Made by a program: the position numbers and the translations under genes. 64,000 nt of DNA from Shigella virus Moo19. Shown piece by piece: positions 6,345 through 18,460 of the stretch. Where the stretch lies: the sequence record MZ358387, one strand, 5' to 3'. Within the stretch, counting starts at the first letter, position 1. The number at the start of each line of letters is the position of its first letter. Below the pieces are notes generated by a model, which saw nothing but the letters and a program-made list of their open reading frames with translations, made no database searches and had not been told where the DNA came from.

Positions 6345-7517
6345 ATGAACCAGATACCTCAGCACACTTTGACCGACGAGCAACTCATGCGAGAGTATGA
6401 CCGTACTCAGGCTCAGGCTTTTCTGGGCAAGAGTGCTGCGTTCTTTGGCTCACTACTGTGTAGTCTTAAATTCTCCTGGCAACGGGAGAATTGCGATACC
6501 GCTCAGACCGATGGTACTGAGCTTCAGTTTAACCCTGACTTCTTTGTCTGGTTAAAGCCTGAAACAAGAAAGACCGTGCTTATGCACGAGCTTTGGCATG
6601 TAGGTTATCTGCATGGTGTCCGTCAGGGTTCTCGTGACCCAGAGTTCTGGAACTATGCCTGTGACATCTACATTAACAACCAGTTAGAAGACGACGGCTA
6701 CTCCTTCGAGGGAGTAGAGAACTGCTGGAAAGACCCAAAATATAAAGGTTGGGTCGAAGAGGATATTTACGATGACCTTATGAAGAATCCCCACAAGAAG
6801 CCGAAGGCATTGGGGGCATTTGGAACAGGGTCTGGTGGAGATATGGTTAGCCCCACTTCGGGTTCATCTCCTGCAACTATCGTCAACAACGTAGTACGTG
6901 CACTGCAACAACAAAAACTGGCTGGTGGCACACTAGCTGGTACTGGTGCAGGCCGTATGCAAGAGGTGATTACCCAATTCCTCAAGCCAGTAGTTCCGTG
7001 GCAGCAAGTCCTGTTCGACTTCTTCACTGACATTGATGACACCAAGTACACCTGGGCAAGACCTAATCGTCGTTACCCGGATATGTACCTGCCATCTCTG
7101 GAAGATGATGAAGGTCGCTTACGACATCTGGCCTATTTCGAGGATGTCTCTGGTTCCATTAGCAATGCTGACTCTCTGCGTTTTAACTCAGAAGTGGCCT
7201 ATGTTAAGAGCCAGTTTAATCCGAAGAAAATGACCCTACTCACTTTCGATACTGTTATTCAGGACGAAATCGATATCACCGAAGAGGATACCTTTGAGGA
7301 GATTAAGATTACAGGCCGTGGAGGTACTTGCCTCAAGCCTGTTCGTGAGTGGATTATCAAGAACAAGCCAACTGCTGCTATCATCTTCTCTGATATGCAC
7401 GTTGCACCTATGGAAGAACTCCCGTTTGATATACCTATCATCTGGGTTTGTTTGGGAAACCGACATGCCACCGTGCCTTTCGGTGAAATCTTACATATTG
7501 ACCCAGGAATGAAATAA
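6345..7517 (+). CDS. VWA-like protein with N-terminal HExxH metallopeptidase-like motif (DUF2201-like partner of MoxR ATPases)
   Basis: Starts 4 nt after the ATPase gene. 'LMHELWHVGYLH' motif near the N-terminus; C-terminal half resembles a VWA/MIDAS-type domain ('YFEDVSGSIS'). Confidence 0.5.
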   Translation: MNQIPQHTLTDEQLMREYDRTQAQAFLGKSAAFFGSLLCSLKFSWQRENCDTAQTDGTELQFNPDFFVWLKPETRKTVLMHELWHVGYLHGVRQGSRDPEFWNYACDIYINNQLEDDGYSFEGVENCWKDPKYKGWVEEDIYDDLMKNPHKKPKALGAFGTGSGGDMVSPTSGSSPATIVNNVVRALQQQKLAGGTLAGTGAGRMQEVITQFLKPVVPWQQVLFDFFTDIDDTKYTWARPNRRYPDMYLPSLEDDEGRLRHLAYFEDVSGSISNADSLRFNSEVAYVKSQFNPKKMTLLTFDTVIQDEIDITEEDTFEEIKITGRGGTCLKPVREWIIKNKPTAAIIFSDMHVAPMEELPFDIPIIWVCLGNRHATVPFGEILHIDPGMK

Positions 7518-8023
7518 TGGTTTTAAACGGAAATGCTCTGTATCGTTCGTCTCAACTGCTGGATGTCCCAGACCGTAAGGTATCCGAGCATGGTGTAAGC
7601 TATGGATTGGGTGAAGCTGGTTATGATATTCGTATCAAACAAGACATCACCTTCTATCGCTTATTTGGGTTGATTCCAATGGTGAAAACTGTCGATGGTG
7701 AGACGGTAACTCGTCGCTTCGGTAAGTTCGCATTGGCTTCAGCAATTGAGAAGTTCAATATGTCTCCGTCCTGTGTAGCTATCGTTCACGATAAGTCTAC
7801 CTGGGCAAGACGTGCATTATCAGTGTTCAATACCGTGATTGAACCAGGATGGAAAGGGTATCTTACTCTCGAACTGGTCTATCATGGTCGTAAGAAACTG
7901 CATATCCCGGCTGGTGCTGGGATTGCACAAGTGCTGTTCCATCTGGTTCAAGAACCTGCCCATTACAATGGGAAGTATCAGAACCAGGAAAACCAACCTG
8001 TCGCTGCAAGAAGCAGCAAATAA
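7517..8023 (+). CDS. dCTP deaminase/dUTPase-fold protein
   Basis: TAATG overlap with the upstream gene. Motif 'VFNTVIEPGWKGYLTLELVYHG' matches the dCTP deaminase/dUTPase beta-barrel signature. Confidence 0.55.
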   Translation: MVLNGNALYRSSQLLDVPDRKVSEHGVSYGLGEAGYDIRIKQDITFYRLFGLIPMVKTVDGETVTRRFGKFALASAIEKFNMSPSCVAIVHDKSTWARRALSVFNTVIEPGWKGYLTLELVYHGRKKLHIPAGAGIAQVLFHLVQEPAHYNGKYQNQENQPVAARSSK

Positions 8024-8032
8024 GGAATTACC

Positions 8033-8230
8033 ATGTCTGTATTTACTACTAAAGTTGGCGGTGTAAAAGTTACTGTTGTTGCTGCAAATGTTGCATTTGT
8101 ACGCGATATCGAAGGTAAAGGTGAACTGAACTTCGTATCCGGTCTGCAACTGCAAACTGAAGTCGGTTATGACTCTGTACGTCGTAACGTAGCTAAAGCA
8201 CTGTCAGGGGCTGAAGCAGAAGCTGAATAA
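8033..8230 (+). CDS. hypothetical small protein
   Basis: AGGA then ATG 8033; 65 aa. Confidence 0.45.
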   Translation: MSVFTTKVGGVKVTVVAANVAFVRDIEGKGELNFVSGLQLQTEVGYDSVRRNVAKALSGAEAEAE

Positions 8231-8251
8231 GTAGCAAGTGCTTACCTTAAT

Positions 8252-8270
8252 AGCCCTGCAATGCAGGGCT
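8252..8270 (+). other. perfect hairpin (terminator-like, weak U-tract)
   Basis: 'agccctgca a tgcagggct' inverted repeat right after the 8033..8230 gene, followed by 'atttg'. Confidence 0.3.
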
Positions 8271-8272
8271 AT

Positions 8273-8288
8273 TTGTGGAAGTTCCTTC
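8273..8288 (+). promoter_or_regulatory. 16-nt repeated motif TTGTGGAAGTTCCTTC, copy 1 (candidate promoter/operator)
   Basis: Exact 16-nt match to 8597-8612. Contains the near-palindrome GGAAGTTCC. Lies 8 nt upstream of the SD (8296-8300) of the Imm-like gene. Confidence 0.35.
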
Positions 8289-8306
8289 AATAACTCAGGA
8301 GTCTTA

Positions 8307-8567
8307 ATGGAAGTTTTATCTGCATTACTGGTTCTGGTAATTGCTCTTACAGCTTATCTGTTACCAACTATCATCGCATTCGTTCGTGGTCATGCTTCTA
8401 AGTGGGGCATTTTTATCACTAATTTACTGTTGGGCTGGTCACTGATTTTCTGGATTGTTGCACTGATTTGGTCACTGTCCAATAAAGGACAATCTCAGAC
8501 TACAATCGTTAACGTTGGAAGTGGTAACAGCTACAACGTGTCTCAAACGAGTCAGTCTGATAAGTAA
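8307..8567 (+). CDS. superinfection-immunity-like small membrane protein (Imm_superinfect-type)
   Basis: AGGAG 8296-8300 then ATG 8307. Two TM helices with the family-typical pattern 'YLLPTIIAFVRGHASKWGIFITNLLLGWSLIFWIVALIWSL'. Confidence 0.55.
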   Translation: MEVLSALLVLVIALTAYLLPTIIAFVRGHASKWGIFITNLLLGWSLIFWIVALIWSLSNKGQSQTTIVNVGSGNSYNVSQTSQSDK

Positions 8568-8596
8568 CTAACCTAAGCATCATTTAAAAGTGGTGC

Positions 8597-8612
8597 TTGT
8601 GGAAGTTCCTTC
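8597..8612 (+). promoter_or_regulatory. 16-nt repeated motif TTGTGGAAGTTCCTTC, copy 2
   Basis: Exact repeat of 8273-8288; here a full 5-bp stem/3-nt loop 'GGAAG TTC CTTCC'. Lies between the Imm-like gene and terminator 8641-8667. Confidence 0.35.
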
Positions 8613-8640
8613 CAGCTCATTGCTTATCCATGCGTAACCC

Positions 8641-8667
8641 AAAGCCCACTTAATCGTGGGCTTTTTT
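8641..8667 (+). terminator. rho-independent terminator
   Basis: Stem 'aagcccac'/'gtgggctt', loop 'ttaatc', then TTTTTT. Confidence 0.7.
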
Positions 8668-8682
8668 AATTTAGGTACTCTT

Positions 8683-9144
8683 ATGTCAGTCGTTAAAGGT
8701 TCATGGTCTGCCCGATACCCTAACTTAATGAATATACCCCGTGGCTCAGGTAAGTCAGTACTAGTAGGAATGGACTTTTCTAGTTTGGAAGACCGTGCAG
8801 CAATAGCTATACGTGATGGTAAATCTGCAAGAGTTATATCAGTATCGCCTACAGGTCGTATAAAAGATGACGCTATAGATGCGATGCTTATGCAAGCTCT
8901 ACAACATAACCTGTCTGGAACAAAAGCTGACTGGTACACAGTAGATGACTTGTATACACCCCCTAAACCACACTGCATGTCCCAAGTGCATGACATTATT
9001 GATAGCTTCTGGTCTGCCCCGGCACTGGGATTATATGGGCAATATATTGCTCAGTTAGACAAGAAGCCAAAAACCAAAGATGTTTTTAAAGGAAAAAGCA
9101 CTACTCACCATTACCCCTGGTATAGAAGAGGAAGCAAATACTAA
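8683..9144 (+). CDS. hypothetical protein
   Basis: Start set at ATG 8683, downstream of the terminator that occupies the upstream part of the ORF. Confidence 0.45.
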   Translation: MSVVKGSWSARYPNLMNIPRGSGKSVLVGMDFSSLEDRAAIAIRDGKSARVISVSPTGRIKDDAIDAMLMQALQHNLSGTKADWYTVDDLYTPPKPHCMSQVHDIIDSFWSAPALGLYGQYIAQLDKKPKTKDVFKGKSTTHHYPWYRRGSKY

Positions 9145-9146
9145 TA

Positions 9147-9593
9147 ATGCGTATCCCATTCTTAAACAAAAGGAAAAGGGTTCCAACCCTGTTTCAAAAG
9201 GGAATTGAAGACGAGTTCGCTCTTAACCGTAAAGCACAGCAATACATCGTAACTTTGTTCACTGGTGCAAAGGTAGATGCAGAAATGCAGCTTACTTTCA
9301 TATTTGAACAGCTATTCATCGTGTACAATCTCGCCTTGTTTACTGGCTCTCACGAAGTGAGTGATTGTGCACGAGAAGCCCTCCGTAAGCTCCGTGGTGA
9401 GTTTGAAAGACTACATGCCAGCTTTCCCTTCACTATGGATGCAGTCGCCTCTGTGAACTGCTCAAAGGCTCTGGCAATGGGTATACCCATTTTGCAAGAA
9501 CTACCTCGTAGTGAATTTAAGTTGGCTTATGTGCAAGCCCGTAAGCTAACGGAGTCCAAACAAACCCTAATCTATTTAGAGAACCTACGATGA
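9147..9593 (+). CDS. hypothetical protein
   Basis: ATG 9147, 2 nt after the upstream stop; ATGA overlap with the next gene. Confidence 0.5.
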   Translation: MRIPFLNKRKRVPTLFQKGIEDEFALNRKAQQYIVTLFTGAKVDAEMQLTFIFEQLFIVYNLALFTGSHEVSDCAREALRKLRGEFERLHASFPFTMDAVASVNCSKALAMGIPILQELPRSEFKLAYVQARKLTESKQTLIYLENLR

Positions 9594-10534
9594 TTAAAGC
9601 AGAAGTAATTGCTGATAGTCTTCATGAGAAGACAGGCACTCGCATTACCACGTTTGAACTGGTTTACCCACGTTTCATTCACAGTGAGTTTATGACTCAC
9701 CGCATCTTCAACCGTAATGCTTCAAGCAGTCGTGCAATTCCTACCGACCGTTTTATTGAACAGGTGCGTACTGACCCTGTATTCCCAAGCTATTGGGGTA
9801 AGAACCAGAAAGGGATGCAGGCATTTGAAGAACTGTCTGAAGACCAACGTAGTGATGCAATGTTTATCTGGGACCAGGCTGCGTCCAGTGCTGCTACCTA
9901 TGCAGAAATGCTGCGTCGTGGACAAGTCCATAAGCAGATTGTTAACCGCATTCTGGAACCGTTCACCCATATCCGTGTGGTAGTTACATCCACTAGCTGG
10001 ACAAACTTCTATGGTTTACGTGACCATGAGGATGCCCAACCGGAAATCCGTTTACTGGCTCAGGCCATGAAGAAGGCTCATGAAGAATCTGTTCCGCAAA
10101 AACTCAAGAAAGGTGACTGGCATCTGCCTTATATTCGTGGTGCTGATTGTGCTAACGCTTACAATCATTGCAAATATCAACGAATTACAAGGGATGAACC
10201 AGGTAATGAGGAAATTTTAGGCTTACTGCTTAAAGTTTCTGCTGCTCGTTGTGCTCGTGCCTCCTATAACAACTTCGAAGGCAAGCCATCTACTATCAGT
10301 GATGACCTTGACCTCTTCGCTAAGTTGGTAGAGAAACAGCCAATTCATGCCTCACCTACTGAGCATCAGGCTACACCGATGGACTTCAGTACCAAGTACG
10401 TTAATAACTCAAACCCAGCAACCTGGGAACAGGGTGTTACCTCTATGGATAGGGAGGGTAATCTCTACTCCGGTAACCTGCTGCACTTCGTCCAATTCCG
10501 TAAACTCATCCCCGGCGAAACAATCACTGCGTGA
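9590..10534 (+). CDS. ThyX-like (flavin-dependent thymidylate synthase-like) protein, tentative
   Basis: Motif 'HSEFMTHRIFNRNASSSR' resembles the ThyX 'RHR-x7-S-x-R' signature. Motif-level only. Confidence 0.35.
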   Translation: MIKAEVIADSLHEKTGTRITTFELVYPRFIHSEFMTHRIFNRNASSSRAIPTDRFIEQVRTDPVFPSYWGKNQKGMQAFEELSEDQRSDAMFIWDQAASSAATYAEMLRRGQVHKQIVNRILEPFTHIRVVVTSTSWTNFYGLRDHEDAQPEIRLLAQAMKKAHEESVPQKLKKGDWHLPYIRGADCANAYNHCKYQRITRDEPGNEEILGLLLKVSAARCARASYNNFEGKPSTISDDLDLFAKLVEKQPIHASPTEHQATPMDFSTKYVNNSNPATWEQGVTSMDREGNLYSGNLLHFVQFRKLIPGETITA

Positions 10535-10570
10535 TTGTGTTGTTTGGTTTGAACAACTCTTAAGGCAAAT

Positions 10571-10843
10571 ATGAAAAAGCTCGCTTTGTACGCAATGATT
10601 GCTAGTTGCATCATTACACTGGTTTATGTAATTAAGCTCCAATGGTTCGTTGAAACAGACTATGCGTTCTGGCGAATCACAGCCATTACTGCACTAAGTG
10701 AAATTGGTCTGTGGTGCTTCTATTACTACGCTCGTGACTACGAAGGCATCAAAGCACACGAAGAAAATGCCAAGCGTATTGCACGGCACTTTACTATGAT
10801 GGTTCAGCCATCAGATGAAGACGACTCAGGACAAAAGCAGTAA
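10571..10843 (+). CDS. small membrane protein
   Basis: Two hydrophobic helices ('LALYAMIASCIITLVYVI', 'ITAITALSEIGLWCFYYY'). Confidence 0.5.
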   Translation: MKKLALYAMIASCIITLVYVIKLQWFVETDYAFWRITAITALSEIGLWCFYYYARDYEGIKAHEENAKRIARHFTMMVQPSDEDDSGQKQ

Positions 10844-10849
10844 ACTTAA

Positions 10850-10875
10850 AGACCTCCTACGGGAGGTCTTTTTTT
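10850..10875 (+). terminator. rho-independent terminator
   Basis: Stem 'gacctcc'/'ggaggtc' with loop 'tacg', then TTTTTTT. Same stem as the terminator at 2704-2731. Confidence 0.75.
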
Positions 10876-10901
10876 GAGTCTACTACTGTCCGGGAGGACT
10901 T

Positions 10902-11120
10902 ATGCCACATAAATACCGTATTAAAAGCTCTGGTGATTTCGTCTATGCGTTAGTTTACTCGGACTACGGAGCAGCTAAGTTAGACACCAATGCTACTGGC
11001 ATTGAGCACAAATCCGTAACCCTGGAAGAGAATGGAGGGTATCCATTCTTCACTGTACCAGTTAATCAGTTGGAAGAAATTTATGATGAATCCAAAGGTA
11101 ATACACAGCAAAACGGGTGA
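10902..11120 (+). CDS. hypothetical small protein
   Basis: GGGAGG then ATG 10902; 72 aa. Confidence 0.4.
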   Translation: MPHKYRIKSSGDFVYALVYSDYGAAKLDTNATGIEHKSVTLEENGGYPFFTVPVNQLEEIYDESKGNTQQNG

Positions 11121-11430
11121 AGCTGTAGAGCTTGATACCATTGCTAAAGTGGAAGATATTCTGGCTTGCCCTGCAAATATTGCATCACTTTGCCAGTGTA
11201 TTGTTGCACTGTCAGAGGAGCGTAAGCTATGGCTTGAACCAAACAAAGAGATGGTTCAGGCTGGGATTGCTGAAGTACATAGTACTTTAGAAAATATTTC
11301 TCAGGAAAACTACGAAGCTGGGGAATGTAGTCATGTTGGTCATATTGACCTTGATACAATGACTGATGACCAGGCTTCTGATTTAGCTGTATTCGTCCTG
11401 CAAGCTATGGCAGGTAAGCGTAGTGGTTGA
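11083..11430 (+). CDS. hypothetical protein
   Basis: ATGATG at 11083 after 'GGAAG'; overlaps the upstream ORF by 38 nt in another frame. Start uncertain. Confidence 0.4.
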   Translation: MMNPKVIHSKTGEAVELDTIAKVEDILACPANIASLCQCIVALSEERKLWLEPNKEMVQAGIAEVHSTLENISQENYEAGECSHVGHIDLDTMTDDQASDLAVFVLQAMAGKRSG

Positions 11431-11564
11431 GCTGTTCAACCTAATATCCCCACTGATGTATACCTTCAATGATTTTCTTGGAACATACGGCACTGCTTTA
11501 GGTAGTGCCGTAGTTCTATTCGCTCTTTTCTATTAAAAGCTGCATTCTATCTGGAGAGTTAAAA

Positions 11565-14189
11565 ATGCAAGTCGCAGACAATCAAGAATTAACTACCTCT
11601 GCTACCCTCGGTGGCAAACAAGCTATCTCATTCGGTATCTCGGATGACCCGGCATTCTTTCACGTACTGAGTTCATCTCTGTATAACAATCCAAATCTGG
11701 CTGTTGTACGTGAAACCATCTGTAATCAGTGGGATGCTCACATTGAAGCAGGTAAGACACACCTGCCCGTGCTAATCGTCATTGATAAAGACAACTTTAT
11801 TACCTTTCGTGACTACGGTAAAGGTATCCCATCCGATAAGATTGGTGCTGTATATGCCACTTATGGGGCATCCACCAAGAAAGCTAATTCCAGTGTAACT
11901 GGTGGCTTTGGTCTGGGATGTAAATCACCATTCGCTTATACAGACAGCTTCCAGGTTACTTCATGGAACCAGGGTAAGATGTCTATCTATAACGTTACTA
12001 AGTCCTCGGTAGAGACTGACGGTAAGCCGGGTGTAATCCCAATTATTACGGACGTTGCCTCTGACGATACTGGTCTGGAAGTTAAATTCCAGCTTCGTCC
12101 TGAAGATGTGAACGAGTTCATTCGTTACATCGAATCCATTGTTTATAACGGTGAGATTAAAGCAATCCTGCGTAGCCCTAAGATGGTACTCAATCCTGAT
12201 GGTAACCGTACCATCGAGCTGCAAGACCGTAGTCTGCCTGTACTAGGTATGTCCTTTGAACCTGGTTCATATGACATTAACGGTACATGGCATCGTAGCT
12301 ATATGGGCAGCAGTGCTGTTTATGTACGTTATGGTAACGTAATGTATCCGGCTGTTGAAAGTCCGGCTACAGAGGAAGCACTGGGAGTTATTCATAACTT
12401 CATGAACATCATTGGTGCTAACCGTATTGTTGTTCAAGCTGCTCCATCTACTCTGGCTATTGCCCCAAGCCGTGAAACACTGTCGAACCAGAAAATGACT
12501 GACGATGGTATCGTAGACATCTGTGTTGACCTCGTTGACCGTCTGGAAAAGGAAATCAAAGCAGGTATCCCAATAGCTTTGAAAGAAATTGAAGAAGGTA
12601 TTGCTAAGTCTAATCACTTTAGCATGTATGACTGGGAAAATTTCTTTGATTACGTATCTAACACTCGTGTTAGAGGCTACATGAAGTCAAGCCTGTGGCG
12701 TAAAGCATCTCGCCACTATCGTAAACACTGGAAAAAACTGTCTAATAAACGATTCTTTGAACAAGAAGAGTTTAAAGGTATTCACTTTAGTCGTAGTCGT
12801 GCAATGACTGCACTAAAGCAATCCCGTTCAAGCCAAAGACAGGATTATTTTCTGAGCTTCCTGCAACGCTATGTTGTACTGCCTAAGCTGTATGAATGGA
12901 AGTTGTGTAAGCTGAAATGGTCTGGTCACGTTGTTGGTCGTTATCACAACTGCATGTTAGTAAAGCATGGGTTACGTACCTATATGCGTACCTATTCTGA
13001 CCTGGCTGTGCTTCAGACACTGGTAACCAAAAACGTAATCATTACCCGTCGTATGTCAGATTGTCATGAATCGTTTTATTACCATCCTGATTATCATGGT
13101 TCAGCATGGGAAGCTAAATGTGGTGGCAATAGTGGTGTATACACTACTAAAACTGCTCATGTTATTCACATTGGAGCCAAGAAAGGCGAAGCTGAGGAGG
13201 TAGCTGCTAAGTATACTGCTCTGGGCTATCAAATCATTGACCTTACCAAGCAAAATGATTGGGATAAACCAGCAGAAATGCGACGTATTGCTACTGCATC
13301 GGCTAATGCTAAACGTGCCAAGAACAAAGCTGATTTATTAGCTGCTGGCATGAAAGGCTCTGAACCAAACCGTTTAATTTCAATTAACTGTGTGCTTAAT
13401 AAGCGTAGTGGTATTGACCGTGATACCAAAAAAATCTATGAGTTCGATTATATCGACCCTGATTTTGCTGCACCAGAAAAGTGGAAACAATATGGTCACG
13501 TTGACGTAGAGAATCCACTCTATTACGTAGAACTTAAAGAGATTCGTTCTGGGCGTCCTGAACAGAATCCTGACATTGGTTCTATGCACCAATGGACTGA
13601 TTTAACTGATGAAGTTAAAGCAGTAACCGTTGTCTGCCGTAATAAAATTGAGGTTAACAAAGCCATTAAACGTGGTGCTGTGCATCTCGATGACAAACGC
13701 TACAAGGAAGTGCTGGACATTGTTAAATCCAAAGAGTTCAAGAAATACGTTACTTATGAACGTATTGGTATTCTTGAATATCTGAACATGGAGGATGGTC
13801 AGTACCAAGAGTTGCTTAAGCTGCTCGGCATTAAAGCTAAGGTATTCGATAATCTGGTTCTAAGACCAGAGTTCGAGTGGGCATATAAATTCCTCAATTA
13901 CATGGACTCCAGTAAGAAACGCAAATTGGTTTCTCTGGGTTGCATGGAAAAAGAGGAAGATATTGACCAGTACCTACCATTAACTCACTTGAAGACGTTC
14001 AAAAACCTTCAATCGTTACTGGATATCAAGGGTATCTTCCAAGTAAGGGAAGTAAGTGGTCCTGCTATGTATTACTCATCTGTGCAGGATTTAATCAACT
14101 GGCTTACTGAACACCCAGAGGATATTCCTGGGTATAAGATACTCATCCGTAACTGTTTAACTAAACGTAAAGGTATATACACAAGATGA
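11565..14189 (+). CDS. rIIA-like protein with N-terminal GHKL-type ATPase fold
   Basis: GGAG then ATG 11565. Bergerat-fold boxes 'RDYGKGIP' and 'GGFGLGCKS'. 874 aa, followed by a partner gene with ATGA overlap. Confidence 0.55.
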   Translation: MQVADNQELTTSATLGGKQAISFGISDDPAFFHVLSSSLYNNPNLAVVRETICNQWDAHIEAGKTHLPVLIVIDKDNFITFRDYGKGIPSDKIGAVYATYGASTKKANSSVTGGFGLGCKSPFAYTDSFQVTSWNQGKMSIYNVTKSSVETDGKPGVIPIITDVASDDTGLEVKFQLRPEDVNEFIRYIESIVYNGEIKAILRSPKMVLNPDGNRTIELQDRSLPVLGMSFEPGSYDINGTWHRSYMGSSAVYVRYGNVMYPAVESPATEEALGVIHNFMNIIGANRIVVQAAPSTLAIAPSRETLSNQKMTDDGIVDICVDLVDRLEKEIKAGIPIALKEIEEGIAKSNHFSMYDWENFFDYVSNTRVRGYMKSSLWRKASRHYRKHWKKLSNKRFFEQEEFKGIHFSRSRAMTALKQSRSSQRQDYFLSFLQRYVVLPKLYEWKLCKLKWSGHVVGRYHNCMLVKHGLRTYMRTYSDLAVLQTLVTKNVIITRRMSDCHESFYYHPDYHGSAWEAKCGGNSGVYTTKTAHVIHIGAKKGEAEEVAAKYTALGYQIIDLTKQNDWDKPAEMRRIATASANAKRAKNKADLLAAGMKGSEPNRLISINCVLNKRSGIDRDTKKIYEFDYIDPDFAAPEKWKQYGHVDVENPLYYVELKEIRSGRPEQNPDIGSMHQWTDLTDEVKAVTVVCRNKIEVNKAIKRGAVHLDDKRYKEVLDIVKSKEFKKYVTYERIGILEYLNMEDGQYQELLKLLGIKAKVFDNLVLRPEFEWAYKFLNYMDSSKKRKLVSLGCMEKEEDIDQYLPLTHLKTFKNLQSLLDIKGIFQVREVSGPAMYYSSVQDLINWLTEHPEDIPGYKILIRNCLTKRKGIYTR

Positions 14190-16276
14190 AAATCGAGCTG
14201 ATTTCAATAATCGCACTCGCCGTAGACAGCCGTAACATCACGCTGTGGAAACCTGATGGTTCCACGGTAGTCTTCCCACAAGGCGACCTTCGTGTCGCCC
14301 GTATCGTTGCCGAAGCTAAAGCCAAAGGTCTTGAACCAGGCAAGGTAATTGAAGTGAATATCGCACCAGAAATCGCAGGTAAAACTGAGTTCACTGATGC
14401 AGAGAAACACACTAACGGCCTCGTTAAATTCTTCAAAGTGGCTAAAGCCAAACTCAAAGAGTTCTTTGAAGACGAAACCGAAGTCCGTCCTGCACCACAA
14501 GTACCTGATATCAAAATGGGTAGCCCATGTCAGGTAATGGTTGATAAAGCAATGGATACCTTCCTGGCTATCCAGGCTAATCAACCAGAGGTAACTGTAG
14601 AGTATGGGGATTACGACCGCTGTAATCACCTGCTGTGGATTACCGGGTATGACAAAGAGCATGACCGTGTTGGCTTAATTCGTTTCATTAGTGAGACTCT
14701 GAATTACAGCCCGGAACGTGCAACTACTCATGCCAATCTGGAATGGCCTATTGCCCTGAAAGCTGTGTCTGATGATGCACTGGTAGAATTTACCAATCGT
14801 CTACAACAACTTAAGGGTGTGCACTGGGCAGTTACTAATCGCAGTGTAACGCCGGATGCTTATGAAGAACCTAAAGTTACTCAGGACAAACCTGCTGAAC
14901 CAACTAAGCAAGAAAAACTGACTGCTGCGTCTGAGAAGCTGAAAGCACTGGGTGCTGTAAGTACCGATGATGCTTCCTTCCACGAAGATGTAAAAGAAGA
15001 CGAAGCAATCGTAGCTGTTACGAGTGCTGGTGTAGTCCCTGGTGTTGAAGGGCTGCAACGTCATCTGCGTCAGGCAAGTAAGCTGAAAGACTACAAGGGC
15101 TTTAACCGTTTCCTTGAGCGTCTGGCTCCGGTAGTTAAAGACCGTCGTCACTCAGTTGAAGACCTGATGAAATTCATGGAAAAAGCAGAACTTCCTATCG
15201 CTGATGATGGTTGTATTCTGTTCCTGAAACGCCTGAACTTCAAAGAGACTGGCGTAGATGGTCGTCGTGTATTCGTGGATTGTCACTCCGGTAAAATTAA
15301 ACAATGGGTTGGCATGAAGGTACAGGTTCGTGAAGACCTGGTAGACCCTGACCGTCGTAAAGACTGTTCTAACGGTCTGCACGTTGCTGCTATGAGCTAT
15401 ATTACTGGCTTCAGCGGTAATGTAACCATCCTGGGTAAAGTAGCACCTGAAGACGTATTTGCTGTTCCTGAGTACAGCACCAACAAGATGCGAGTAGCTG
15501 CATATCACATCATTGCTGAGTTGCCTGAAAAAGAACGTAGTAACGTCTGTAATGGCGTTTACCTGTCCAAAACGGACGTAGGTAAAAAACTACTTAACGA
15601 TGCAATTGTGGGCAACCACACTGCACCAACAGACCTGGTAATGGTTGGTGGTCATATGGGCAGCAACCTGAAATACACCCAGTTAACTGGCGGTACTGTA
15701 GAGCAAATCCGTACCACTGCATCGAAAGAAGCATTGGATATGGAAGAGTCTCTGTCACCAGAAGCTCTGAGTGCTGAACCAGTGAAAGCACTTGATGTCA
15801 AACCCGTAAACAAACCAGCGGTTGAAATTAAACCTGCTAAGGCTCCTACTGTGAAAGAACAAATCCTGGAACTGGTAAAAGAGTTCCAAAATGCAACTTC
15901 CCCGGAAGATAAGCTGGCTGCTGCTGACCTGCTGGTCGAACTACGTGGTAAGGCTAAGAAGCCGTGGGGTGCATTCGGCGTCGATAGCTCTATCGTCGAT
16001 GAGATTGCCAAAGTACGTTCCACTCAGGAACGTCTGGAAGAAGCTAAAGCCGAACCAGTGAAAGTAAGCAAGCCCGTTAAGGCTGCTGCTAAACCTGGTA
16101 AGGGCAAACATGCTGATACCATCCGTAGCTGGCTCAATGATAGTGGTATGTCTGACTATCAGAAAGCCCACTCTATTCATGACCTGAAACGTGCTGCTAA
16201 GAAATCTTATGCTGCACTGGGTCTTACTGAAGAAGAGTGCAAAGCTATTGACAAGCTTAAGCATCATCTGAAGTAA
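14186..16276 (+). CDS. rIIB-like protein (by size and position next to rIIA-like gene)
   Basis: ATGA-coupled to the upstream gene; 696 aa. No diagnostic motif recognised. Confidence 0.4.
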   Translation: MKIELISIIALAVDSRNITLWKPDGSTVVFPQGDLRVARIVAEAKAKGLEPGKVIEVNIAPEIAGKTEFTDAEKHTNGLVKFFKVAKAKLKEFFEDETEVRPAPQVPDIKMGSPCQVMVDKAMDTFLAIQANQPEVTVEYGDYDRCNHLLWITGYDKEHDRVGLIRFISETLNYSPERATTHANLEWPIALKAVSDDALVEFTNRLQQLKGVHWAVTNRSVTPDAYEEPKVTQDKPAEPTKQEKLTAASEKLKALGAVSTDDASFHEDVKEDEAIVAVTSAGVVPGVEGLQRHLRQASKLKDYKGFNRFLERLAPVVKDRRHSVEDLMKFMEKAELPIADDGCILFLKRLNFKETGVDGRRVFVDCHSGKIKQWVGMKVQVREDLVDPDRRKDCSNGLHVAAMSYITGFSGNVTILGKVAPEDVFAVPEYSTNKMRVAAYHIIAELPEKERSNVCNGVYLSKTDVGKKLLNDAIVGNHTAPTDLVMVGGHMGSNLKYTQLTGGTVEQIRTTASKEALDMEESLSPEALSAEPVKALDVKPVNKPAVEIKPAKAPTVKEQILELVKEFQNATSPEDKLAAADLLVELRGKAKKPWGAFGVDSSIVDEIAKVRSTQERLEEAKAEPVKVSKPVKAAAKPGKGKHADTIRSWLNDSGMSDYQKAHSIHDLKRAAKKSYAALGLTEEECKAIDKLKHHLK

Positions 16277-16287
16277 CCTGTTCAAGA

Positions 16288-16319
16288 ACCCTCAGTTGAA
16301 ATATACTGAGGGTATCTTT
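16288..16319 (+). terminator. terminator-like hairpin after the rIIB-like gene
   Basis: 9-bp stem accctcagt/actgagggt with 8-nt loop, followed by 'atctttg'. Confidence 0.35.
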
Positions 16320-16335
16320 GAAGAGGAAATGTACT

Positions 16336-16731
16336 ATGTCTAAAGTTTATCGTGTTAATCGCAAAGCAACTGATGAAGACATCATTAAGATGAATGCAGT
16401 TGGTTTATCCCTGGCAACTATTGCAAAGACGTTGGGGATTCATCCCACAACAGTTACTTTGCGATTGCGTTCTCTAAATATTGAACCTGCCGACACCCGT
16501 CGGACGTTCATGGAGAATGTACTAACACCACTGCCCACCCATGTGGTCGATTGGTTAGCCGAGCAAGTGGGTCCACAATATGAGATTCGCTCATATGTTC
16601 GTGACCTGCTTATGGAGGCTTACAACAATCGCCACCAATATCAAGAGAGTGCTCATGAGCGATTCCTCAAACGATACGCTGGTACAAACTCAGAACTGGT
16701 TTCTGAAAGCAGTACCAAACCCAACGAGTAA
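16336..16731 (+). CDS. helix-turn-helix DNA-binding protein
   Basis: AGAGGA 16322-16327 then ATG 16336. HTH segment 'LSLATIAKTLGIHPTTVTLRLRSL'. Confidence 0.5.
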   Translation: MSKVYRVNRKATDEDIIKMNAVGLSLATIAKTLGIHPTTVTLRLRSLNIEPADTRRTFMENVLTPLPTHVVDWLAEQVGPQYEIRSYVRDLLMEAYNNRHQYQESAHERFLKRYAGTNSELVSESSTKPNE

Positions 16732-17116
16732 AAATATCAGTACCCAAATTGGTTGCCATTTAGAAGAAGTTCTAGAAATGGTAGATGTATTAATGGGGGA
16801 AGATTCATTTTCCCAGATGGCTCTTACCGATTTACGCCATGCACTACGAACTGTGTCAGAGCGTATGAAAAACAATTCAGATGCCATTTATATTAATCAG
16901 GAAGACAGGGAAGAACTTCTGGACAGTCTTGCTGACCAGATTGTTACAGCGACTGGTGTCGGTGTTTTCCTGGGTATGAATGTACCCGGTGCTCTCGATG
17001 AAGTTAACCGTTCGAACTACTCTAAGTTCGAGAATGGGGAACCAGTATTCAACGAGAACAAAAAGGTCATGAAAGGCAAAGACTATACGCCACCTGACCT
17101 GAGCAAATTTATCTAA
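16655..17116 (+). CDS. MazG-like nucleotide pyrophosphohydrolase-like protein, tentative
   Basis: 'EEVLEMVDVLMGE' resembles the MazG EExxE metal-binding motif. Start uncertain (16655 or 16778); overlaps the upstream gene by 77 nt if 16655. Confidence 0.35.
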   Translation: MSDSSNDTLVQTQNWFLKAVPNPTSKNISTQIGCHLEEVLEMVDVLMGEDSFSQMALTDLRHALRTVSERMKNNSDAIYINQEDREELLDSLADQIVTATGVGVFLGMNVPGALDEVNRSNYSKFENGEPVFNENKKVMKGKDYTPPDLSKFI

Positions 17117-17136
17117 CCCTCTACGGAGGGTTTTTT
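17117..17136 (+). terminator. rho-independent terminator
   Basis: Stem 'ccctc'/'gaggg' with loop 'tacg', then TTTTTT. Confidence 0.7.
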
Positions 17137-17149
17137 ACTGGAGAAATTG

Positions 17150-18460
17150 ATGTTTTCTAAACCTACCAAGTCCCCGTTGAACCAGGGGCAGAATGCTGTC
17201 GCAGACGCTTTCTTTGACTTCCTGCTTGACCCTAATCAGTCAGAGTTCAATATCAGTGGACCTGGGGGTACTGGTAAGACTTACCTCATGTCTCACCTGA
17301 TTGATGACACGATGCCACGTTACATGGAAACATGTGAACTGATGGGTACTAAACCCATGTATCAGGAAGTTGTCATGACAGCGACGACTAACAAGGCTGC
17401 TGAAGTACTGGCTCGTGCTACTGGGCGTCCTACGTCTACGTATCACTCATTCCAGGGACTGACTGTTAAGAACGACTTTAAGACTGGTGACAGTAATGTA
17501 ATTCCGTCCAAGTCATTCAGTGTTAAACGAAACAAAATCATCTTTATTGATGAAGCGTCAATGATTGACCGTCAGTTACTGAAGTATGCCCGTGAGGGAA
17601 CTCATAACAGTAAGCTGGTATTCGTAGGTGATGCAAGTCAGCTACTGCCAGTAAAAGAAAACAAGTCACCAGTATATGCTGGTAACATCCCGACTCACTA
17701 TCTGACCCAGCAGATGCGTACCGACCAGCCAGAACTGAAAGCATTGCACCAGCAACTGCGAGATACAGTTAACGGCGTAACGGGATTCCTGCCAATCAAA
17801 TGTGTACCGGGAGTTATCGACTGGGTACAAGGCGAGGAGATGGAGAAGCTGGTACTTGACCACTTCACCCAACCTACTGATAGCCGTATTGTGGCCTACA
17901 CGAATGACCAGGTTATTAATTACAATAACTACATTCGTGGTGCTAATGGTCACACTGGCGAATACAAAGTAGGTGAGAAACTCGTTTCTAACTCTGCTGT
18001 AGCAGTTACTGCCGAAGACCGTCTGTCTATTGAACAGGAAGTCGAAATCATCGACCAAGACAGTGCAACTCGTATGATTCGTGTCGTTAACGACATTGAA
18101 TTAGAAGTACGGGATAGCACTCTTGACCTGGGTTACGGTGGTATCGTCAGCAGTGTACCTGTTCCGACTGACCCAGATTATTTCAACCGTTTGGTTAAAT
18201 GGCTGGGTAAGGATAAGAACTGGGAACCCTATTTCCGTATGAAGGAAACTATCCCAGACCTCCGTGCTCTACATGCCTGTACTGTTCACAAGTCACAAGG
18301 CTCGACTTACGACACTATCTTCATTGATGCTTCCGACCTCTCAAGCTGTCGCCAACCTGACATGGTTGCCCGTCTGCTTTATGTCGCAGTATCCCGTGCT
18401 CGTAAACGAGTTGTGTTCTATGGTGACCTGGCTCAGAAATACGGTGGCCTTACCTACTAG
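17150..18460 (+). CDS. SF1 DNA helicase (Dda/RecD-like)
   Basis: GGAG then ATG 17150. Walker A 'GPGGTGKT', Walker B 'IIFIDEASM', motif 'VGDASQL'. Confidence 0.7.
   Translation: MFSKPTKSPLNQGQNAVADAFFDFLLDPNQSEFNISGPGGTGKTYLMSHLIDDTMPRYMETCELMGTKPMYQEVVMTATTNKAAEVLARATGRPTSTYHSFQGLTVKNDFKTGDSNVIPSKSFSVKRNKIIFIDEASMIDRQLLKYAREGTHNSKLVFVGDASQLLPVKENKSPVYAGNIPTHYLTQQMRTDQPELKALHQQLRDTVNGVTGFLPIKCVPGVIDWVQGEEMEKLVLDHFTQPTDSRIVAYTNDQVINYNNYIRGANGHTGEYKVGEKLVSNSAVAVTAEDRLSIEQEVEIIDQDSATRMIRVVNDIELEVRDSTLDLGYGGIVSSVPVPTDPDYFNRLVKWLGKDKNWEPYFRMKETIPDLRALHACTVHKSQGSTYDTIFIDASDLSSCRQPDMVARLLYVAVSRARKRVVFYGDLAQKYGGLTY

Follow-up and report, generated by a model that had tools for sequence, protein, structure and literature searches.

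Three conserved nucleotide-metabolism genes of an N4-like Shigella phage and the probable rearrangement of its flavin-dependent thymidylate synthase

We analyzed a stretch of 64,000 nucleotides from Shigella virus Moo19 (sequence record MZ358387; "the window" hereafter denotes this whole stretch), which belongs to an N4-like podophage (Schitoviridae, near Gamaleyavirus/Moo19). It carries three genes of deoxynucleoside triphosphate (dNTP) metabolism, assigned to the deoxycytidine triphosphate (dCTP) deaminase family, the flavin-dependent thymidylate synthases (ThyX) and the all-alpha (d)NTP pyrophosphohydrolase superfamily. Positions 7000 to 18000 matched 84 phage records, the best of them all N4-like podophages of the Schitoviridae, headed by Escherichia phage Jgk1 with 81% identity over 61%; the DNA identity was 79% to the Gamaleyavirus G7C and 78 to 81% to the Gamaleyavirus phages overall. 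The gene order of the region is syntenic with N4 gp25 to gp37, and the same order is found in the annotated genomes of G7C and pSb-1: a gp25-like gene with DUF2201 and VWA domains, the gp26 dCTP deaminase, small open reading frames (ORFs), the gp30 thymidylate synthase dependent on flavin adenine dinucleotide (FAD), further small ORFs, rIIA and rIIB, gp35, the gp36 pyrophosphohydrolase and the gp37 helicase. Pfam and PHROG scans of the window proteins gave the same layout as in G7C and pSb-1, and the RefSeq products of the three genes in G7C are dCTP deaminase, FAD-dependent thymidylate synthase and nucleoside triphosphate (NTP) pyrophosphohydrolase family protein. The original prediction, made from the sequence alone, had called the three genes dispersed, and small ORFs together with rIIA/rIIB do lie between them, as they do in N4 and G7C. 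All three ORFs lie on the plus strand where that prediction had placed them.

Table 1. Coordinates of the three genes and of two features within them
Feature	Position in the window	Strand	Length	Remark
dCTP deaminase-family gene	7517..8023	+	168 amino acids	Orthologue of N4 gp26 / G7C gp26
N4-type flavin-dependent thymidylate synthase (ThyX) gene	9590..10534	+	314 amino acids	Orthologue of N4 gp30
Relocated ThyX segment, residues 197-259 (…SAARCARASY…H253-ASPTE-H259)	10178..10366	+		Sub-feature of the ThyX gene
All-alpha (d)NTP pyrophosphohydrolase superfamily gene	16655..17116	+	153 amino acids	Orthologue of N4 gp36
EExxE motif E37-E38-V-L-E41, half of the predicted Mg2+ site	16763..16777	+		Within the pyrophosphatase gene

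Among known proteins, the closest to the three are gp26, gp30 and gp36 of N4 and G7C (YP_004782152, YP_004782156 and YP_004782165 in G7C), whose genes are arranged in the same order, with gp35 and gp36 overlapping in the same way. Both the deaminase and ThyX match their G7C counterparts exactly in length (168 and 314 amino acids), and the third protein has 153 residues as opposed to 151 in G7C. The amino acid identities to G7C are 93% for the deaminase, 87% for ThyX and 66% for the pyrophosphatase, the last being 70% identical to N4 gp36, and the three differ from these orthologues by sequence variation alone. For the pyrophosphatase, the nearest record found was a 73-kb metagenome contig, the product of which matches gp51 of Shigella virus Moo19. 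The window is related to this contig without being identical to it, and an exact look-up of the window ThyX sequence gave no record. Codon-level comparisons with G7C and this Moo19-like contig gave ratios of nonsynonymous to synonymous substitution rates (dN/dS) of 0.00 to 0.16 across all three genes (0.06 to 0.16 for the deaminase, 0.10 to 0.14 for ThyX and 0.00 to 0.13 for the pyrophosphatase). The three ORFs are real genes under purifying selection. Judged from their sequences and setting, they are likely to be the conserved N4-like nucleotide-metabolism genes gp26, gp30 and gp36, placed in the replication-gene region and supplying deoxythymidine monophosphate (dTMP) from dCTP.

The start of the deaminase gene overlaps the stop codon of the upstream DUF2201/VWA gene (TAATG). 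The Pfam DCD model (PF22769) matched residues 31 to 142 of the protein with 60.8 bits (cut-off 27; E=2.1e-16), and PHROG 1663, labelled dCTP deaminase, matched with E=5.4e-59. In the Protein Data Bank (PDB), 13 solved chains of the Dcd family matched at E<=1e-4, and the top two, 4dhk (1.3e-11) and 3km3 (5.5e-11), were both deposited as dCTP deaminases. The Pfam, PHROG and PDB matches thus bear out the dCTP deaminase/dUTPase signature that had been read at this gene. The protein contains the motif KSTWAR...EPGWKGYLTLEL, with the residues K93-S94-T-W-A97-R98...E109-P-G-W...T117-L-E119, and its KSTWAR...TLEL elements align with GKSTYAR...EPEW...TLEF in 4dhk and with GKSSLGR...TLEL in the M. tuberculosis enzyme. 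Residues K93, S94, A97, R98 and T117 to E119 were invariant in 20 homologues with 41 to 94% identity. We take Ser94, Arg98 and Glu119 to be the equivalents of Ser111, Arg115 and the catalytic Glu138 of E. coli Dcd. Bacterial Dcd proteins (those of E. coli and B. thailandensis (4dhk), and the bifunctional one of M. tuberculosis (2qlp)) belong to the same domain family, and their Ser-x3-Arg and (D/E)PGW..TLE motifs, including the catalytic Glu, are kept in the phage protein. However, they have about 190 residues compared to the 168 of the phage protein, which is a divergent member of the dCTP deaminase family.

The deaminase also matched the Pfam dUTPase model (4.4e-6), the archaeal-type dUTPase model NF002598 (3e-7) and the S. 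tokodaii dUTPase 2yzj (3.8e-5), and the bifunctional enzymes of B. halodurans and M. tuberculosis were among its PDB matches. These matches would suit a dUTPase, or a bifunctional dCTP deaminase-dUTPase that yields deoxyuridine monophosphate (dUMP) directly and makes gp36 dispensable for that step. We consider such an enzyme unlikely, since the models for dCTP deaminase scored 60.8 and 78 bits as opposed to 27 and 30 bits for those for dUTPase, the Ser/Arg/Glu motif is invariant, and the best PDB matches carry the dCTP deaminase name. The weaker dUTPase match probably reflects the common fold, although sequence by itself does not separate a monofunctional enzyme, with deoxyuridine triphosphate (dUTP) as its product, from a bifunctional one that releases dUMP. 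The ranking of the PDB matches was rejected as a guide to this point: the monofunctional E. coli Dcd ranked below the bifunctional enzymes, and the top entries are uncharacterized structural-genomics depositions.

The ThyX gene shares an ATGA overlap with the gene upstream. The Pfam Thy1 model (PF02511) matched residues 21 to 169 of the protein with 52.0 bits (cut-off 24.8; E=9.7e-14), covering only profile positions 60 to 190, and PHROG 85 matched with E=1.1e-110. A search of the PDB with the single sequence gave no match, a family profile being needed. An AlphaFold2 model built with 33 homologues had a mean predicted local distance difference test score of 86.8 and a predicted template modelling score of 0.85. 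When this model was compared with the PDB using Foldseek, 152 matches were obtained at E<=1e-3 (best 1.9e-6), and all of the 50 listed matches were ThyX chains, from T. maritima, PBCV-1 and M. tuberculosis. The fold is the same as in T. maritima ThyX (1o26) and PBCV-1 ThyX (4fzb), with a Foldseek probability of 1.00 and a target-normalized template modelling score of 0.5 to 0.6, but the phage protein is about 90 residues longer, has extra C-terminal strands and carries THR in place of RHR. The motifs THR-x7-S-S-R and DAQPEIR are both present. Furthermore, H253, H37, R38, S46, R48 and R144 align with H53, H79, R80, S88, R90 and R174 of T. maritima ThyX, and these six positions showed little or no variation among 33 homologues (none at H253 and R144); R120, the equivalent of Arg147, was one position off in the HMMER alignment. 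The ThyX-like motif named in the original prediction therefore belongs to a protein supported by Pfam Thy1, PHROG 85 and a predicted fold that matches solved ThyX structures, and the caveat that the call rested on a short motif only does not hold.

The chain order of this protein differs from that of canonical ThyX. Residues 197 to 259 are the counterpart of the helical segment at the N-terminus of canonical ThyX (about residues 22 to 59 in T. maritima, His53 included), and in the phage protein this segment sits after the C-terminal helix. The AARxSY helix and the HxSPxEH motif lie about 25 residues before RHR in canonical ThyX, whereas they lie about 215 residues after it in the phage protein. 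The HMMER alignment of the family profile with T. maritima ThyX consisted of three pieces in permuted order: query residues 211 to 259 paired with T. maritima 16 to 59 (SAVRAARVSF...GHETPFEH), 18 to 48 with 60 to 90, and 100 to 166 with 128 to 196. Placing residues 197 to 259 between residues 14 and 18 increased the Pfam Thy1 score from 52.0 to 68.3 bits, and the match then covered profile positions 13 to 190. The controls, with three shuffled segments, a reversed segment or no segment, gave 49 to 52 bits and coverage from profile position 51 to 60 onward. In all 25 related ThyX genes from viral contigs, HxSPxEH likewise lay about 200 to 240 residues after the RHR-like motif. A literature search of narrow scope found no description of this arrangement. 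The N4-type ThyX is thus probably a topologically rearranged flavin-dependent thymidylate synthase, and we are fairly confident that the rearrangement is real. Because the chain order appears to be rearranged in the N4-type clade, no more than two thirds of the ThyX domain is covered by standard profiles.

For the third protein, PHROG 671 ("nucleotide pyrophosphohydrolase") matched with E=4e-34. The query itself gave no match to Pfam or NCBIfam models and, as a single sequence, none to the PDB; the Pfam models MazG (PF03819), MazG-like and PRA-PH all stayed below threshold. Among its relatives, sub-threshold matches were seen to PRA-PH (3 of 26 and 5 of 90 sequences, best E=5.7e-4) and to MazG-like (1 of 26, E=0.029). 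A profile of 26 sequences matched the PDB entry 3nl9, a "putative NTP pyrophosphohydrolase", at 2.3e-4. An exhaustive profile search retrieved 3153 representatives at E<=1e-3, and a 90-sequence profile made from them matched 3nl9 at 2.1e-7 over profile positions 34 to 144, which is nearly the whole domain. The next matches of this larger profile, a MazG-related protein and the MazG-like dUTPase DR2231, were below threshold. The protein in 3nl9 (YP_001813558.1 from Exiguobacterium sibiricum, formerly DUF2166) belongs to the all-alpha NTP pyrophosphatase superfamily together with MazG, HisE and the dimeric dUTPases (PMC2954211), and DCTPP1 is a further member. Its metal ligands are Glu43, Glu47, Asp95 and Asp99, four acidic residues for Mg2+ located on two helices, and Asn126, which the members with a preference for dNTPs possess, discriminates deoxyribose (PMC2954211).

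After correction for Gly0, an additional residue in the deposited chain, the phage residues E37, E41, D90, D94 and N121 align with these five residues of 3nl9, so that all positions that bind the metal or discriminate deoxyribose are kept. They were 98 to 100% conserved in 151 sequences with 36 to 62% identity, with N121 invariant, and E37, E38 and E41 were invariant in 90 sequences. However, Tyr102 and Phe103 of 3nl9, which stack on the sugar, are replaced by Val97 and Thr98. The gp36-type protein probably works as a dNTP pyrophosphatase and belongs to the MazG/HisE/dimeric-dUTPase superfamily rather than to MazG proper. Of the MazG-like EExxE assignment made originally, the motif E37-E38-x-x-E41 and the superfamily membership therefore stand, whereas membership of MazG proper, with no Pfam match, does not. 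Profile searches had been proposed as the check on all three families, and they support each of them, the third at the level of the superfamily through PHROG 671 and 3nl9.

The longest ORF of the pyrophosphatase gene extends from 16580 to 17116, but the homologues start at the equivalent of 16655. The homologues have 150 (N4 gp36) and 151 (G7C gp36) residues, and the first 41 residues counted from 16655 are strongly conserved in 150 representatives with 36 to 62% identity; both support the start that had been predicted. The first 77 nucleotides of the gene (16655-16731) overlap the gp35-like gene (16318-16731) in another frame. In G7C, gp35 and gp36 likewise overlap by 77 nucleotides, and in pSb-1 an HNH endonuclease gene lies between the two. 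In Moo19 gp51 and in the matching metagenome contig (L004, 10001-10339), the protein has been called with 112 residues, its start being the equivalent of Met42 (window position 16778). This call drops the conserved EExxE metal-binding helix, and the upstream ORF of the contig is identical to the 153-residue form in the window. The gene is best called from 16655, and the 112-residue call in the relative is too short.

The three assignments can be joined into a route from dCTP to dTMP. In the first step, the gp26-type enzyme would deaminate dCTP to dUTP by means of Ser94, Arg98 and Glu119. In the second, dUTP would be cleaved to dUMP and pyrophosphate by the host Dut, by a bifunctional deaminase or by the gp36-type dNTP pyrophosphatase, in which E37/E41 and D90/D94 would form the Mg2+ site and N121 would select deoxyribose. 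In the third, the gp30-type ThyX would methylate dUMP to dTMP with FAD, reduced nicotinamide adenine dinucleotide phosphate (NADPH) and methylene-tetrahydrofolate, and host kinases would convert dTMP to deoxythymidine triphosphate (dTTP). The net effect would be to provide a genome of 45% G+C with dT nucleotides made from excess dC nucleotides while dUTP is kept low. The data show the family or superfamily memberships, the conserved catalytic and ligand residues, purifying selection and synteny; in which order the steps occur, how the enzymes are coupled, what the deaminase releases and what gp36 acts on are inferred. The G+C fraction of the window is 0.42 to 0.48, below the approximately 51% of the Escherichia and Shigella hosts. 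It is reasonable to suppose, as in the original prediction, that the three genes would bias the dNTP pool, in this case towards dTTP. The G7C annotation for bases 1-45000, which comprise the early and replication genes, contains no other nucleotide-metabolism gene; therefore, the three genes are probably the entire contribution of the phage to nucleotide metabolism. The same three-step logic, with a dCTP deaminase, a dUTP diphosphatase and a thymidylate synthase homologue, has been described for other phages (bioRxiv 10.1101/2025.03.26.645540).

In thymidine-modifying phages, the same enzyme triad has been described as the route to 5-hydroxymethyl-dUTP (bioRxiv 10.1101/2025.03.26.645540), and the ThyX of the window is atypical in being rearranged and in having THR for RHR. 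The triad might accordingly make a modified pyrimidine precursor such as 5-hydroxymethyl-dUMP instead of dTMP, as in phages with hypermodified thymidine. We regard this as extremely improbable: the protein conserves the residues that line up with the dUMP and flavin sites of the T. maritima enzyme, and no kinase, glycosyltransferase or other base-modification gene is annotated in bases 1-45000 of G7C. In addition, hypermodified-thymidine phages are known to use ThyA-family hydroxymethylases rather than ThyX, and we know of no report of modified bases in the DNA of N4-like phages. It is likewise very improbable that the rearranged ThyX with its THR motif, working beside the deaminase and the pyrophosphatase, yields something different from plain dTMP, for example a modified pyrimidine nucleotide.

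Several observations weigh against the supply of dTMP from dCTP by these three genes. The deaminase scored 78 bits (E=6.8e-22) with NCBIfam TIGR02274, below the equivalog cut-off of 92.8, and ThyX scored 53.2 bits with TIGR02170, below the cut-off of 87.9; with both scores under the equivalog level, sequence does not guarantee the exact function. In ThyX, Thr takes the place of the first Arg of RHR (T36-H37-R38-x7-S46-S47-R48) throughout the clade; it was invariant in 33 homologues, with Lys at one distant locus. The pyrophosphatase lacks the Pfam match described above, fold searches with it were uninformative, and its base-recognition residues are not readable from 3nl9. Finally, no N4-type ThyX or Dcd was found within 10 kb of the gp36-like gene in 52 of 80 related viral loci, in a survey that covered the N4-type forms and by which canonical ThyA or ThyX is not detectable. 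The recurrent neighbors in those loci include a family A DNA polymerase, a Dda-like helicase and a nuclease.

Because gp36-like genes occur without N4-type ThyX or Dcd nearby, their role may be general cleaning of the dNTP pool rather than the dUTP step. The gp36-type enzyme would then serve the replication machinery by clearing non-canonical or damaged dNTPs, or another nucleotide, with no functional tie to the deaminase or ThyX. Besides the 52 loci and their polymerase, helicase and nuclease genes, this agrees with the lack of conservation of the dimeric-dUTPase base-recognition residues in the 3nl9 group. However, all three genes stay together across N4-like phages, a deaminase that generates dUTP creates a need to remove it, and the absence of canonical ThyA or ThyX from those loci is not shown by a local search that could not detect them. 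We therefore treat house-cleaning as a possible but somewhat doubtful role for gp36. Outside the N4-like phages, the neighborhoods of gp36-like genes place them in a replication-module context that does not point to a substrate, and these data fit general dNTP cleaning at the replication fork as well as they fit a coupled dUTP step. Such genes were widespread beyond full-length N4-like genomes (loci L020-L084, on viral contigs of 25 to 65 kb), and several of the representatives had N-terminal extensions of 50 to 130 residues.

Within the same region, the N4 gp25-like gene (6345-7517) encodes DUF2201 putative metallopeptidase and VWA-like domains (Pfam, 2e-64 and 1e-35), and the label of its top PHROG family, "HNH endonuclease", seems to be mistaken. 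An ORF at 8238-8567 encodes 109 residues with hydrophobic stretches, in the position of a superinfection-immunity membrane protein in the G7C and pSb-1 annotation. The ORF at 8656-9144 matched PHROG 12812 (function unknown); pSb-1 has gp71 at this place, and no gene is annotated there in G7C. The gp35-like gene (16318-16731) matched PHROG 6377, also of unknown function. The N-terminus of its product shows weak similarity to the helix-turn-helix regions of IS21/IS1 transposases and of a small terminase subunit, and the protein may be a small DNA-binding protein.

The pyrophosphatase was identical to its counterpart on the Moo19-like contig at the protein level (98.7% at the DNA level), whereas the deaminase and ThyX were only 89 to 90% identical to those of the same contig, and the deaminase was nearer to that of G7C. 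This uneven identity points to mosaicism of the region, as read from these sequence comparisons.

The three genes already bear these names in RefSeq relatives and in papers on N4-like phages, and the finding is correct but ordinary. Our analysis mainly confirmed routine annotation, and its additions are the chain order of ThyX and the too-short pyrophosphatase call in a relative. This chain order, seen in the N4-type ThyX, is relevant to automated annotation as well as to any modelling or targeting of the enzyme. For the biology of the group, the results suggest that N4-like phages carry a three-gene kit that would be able to turn dC into dT nucleotides, and the window contains the standard version of it.

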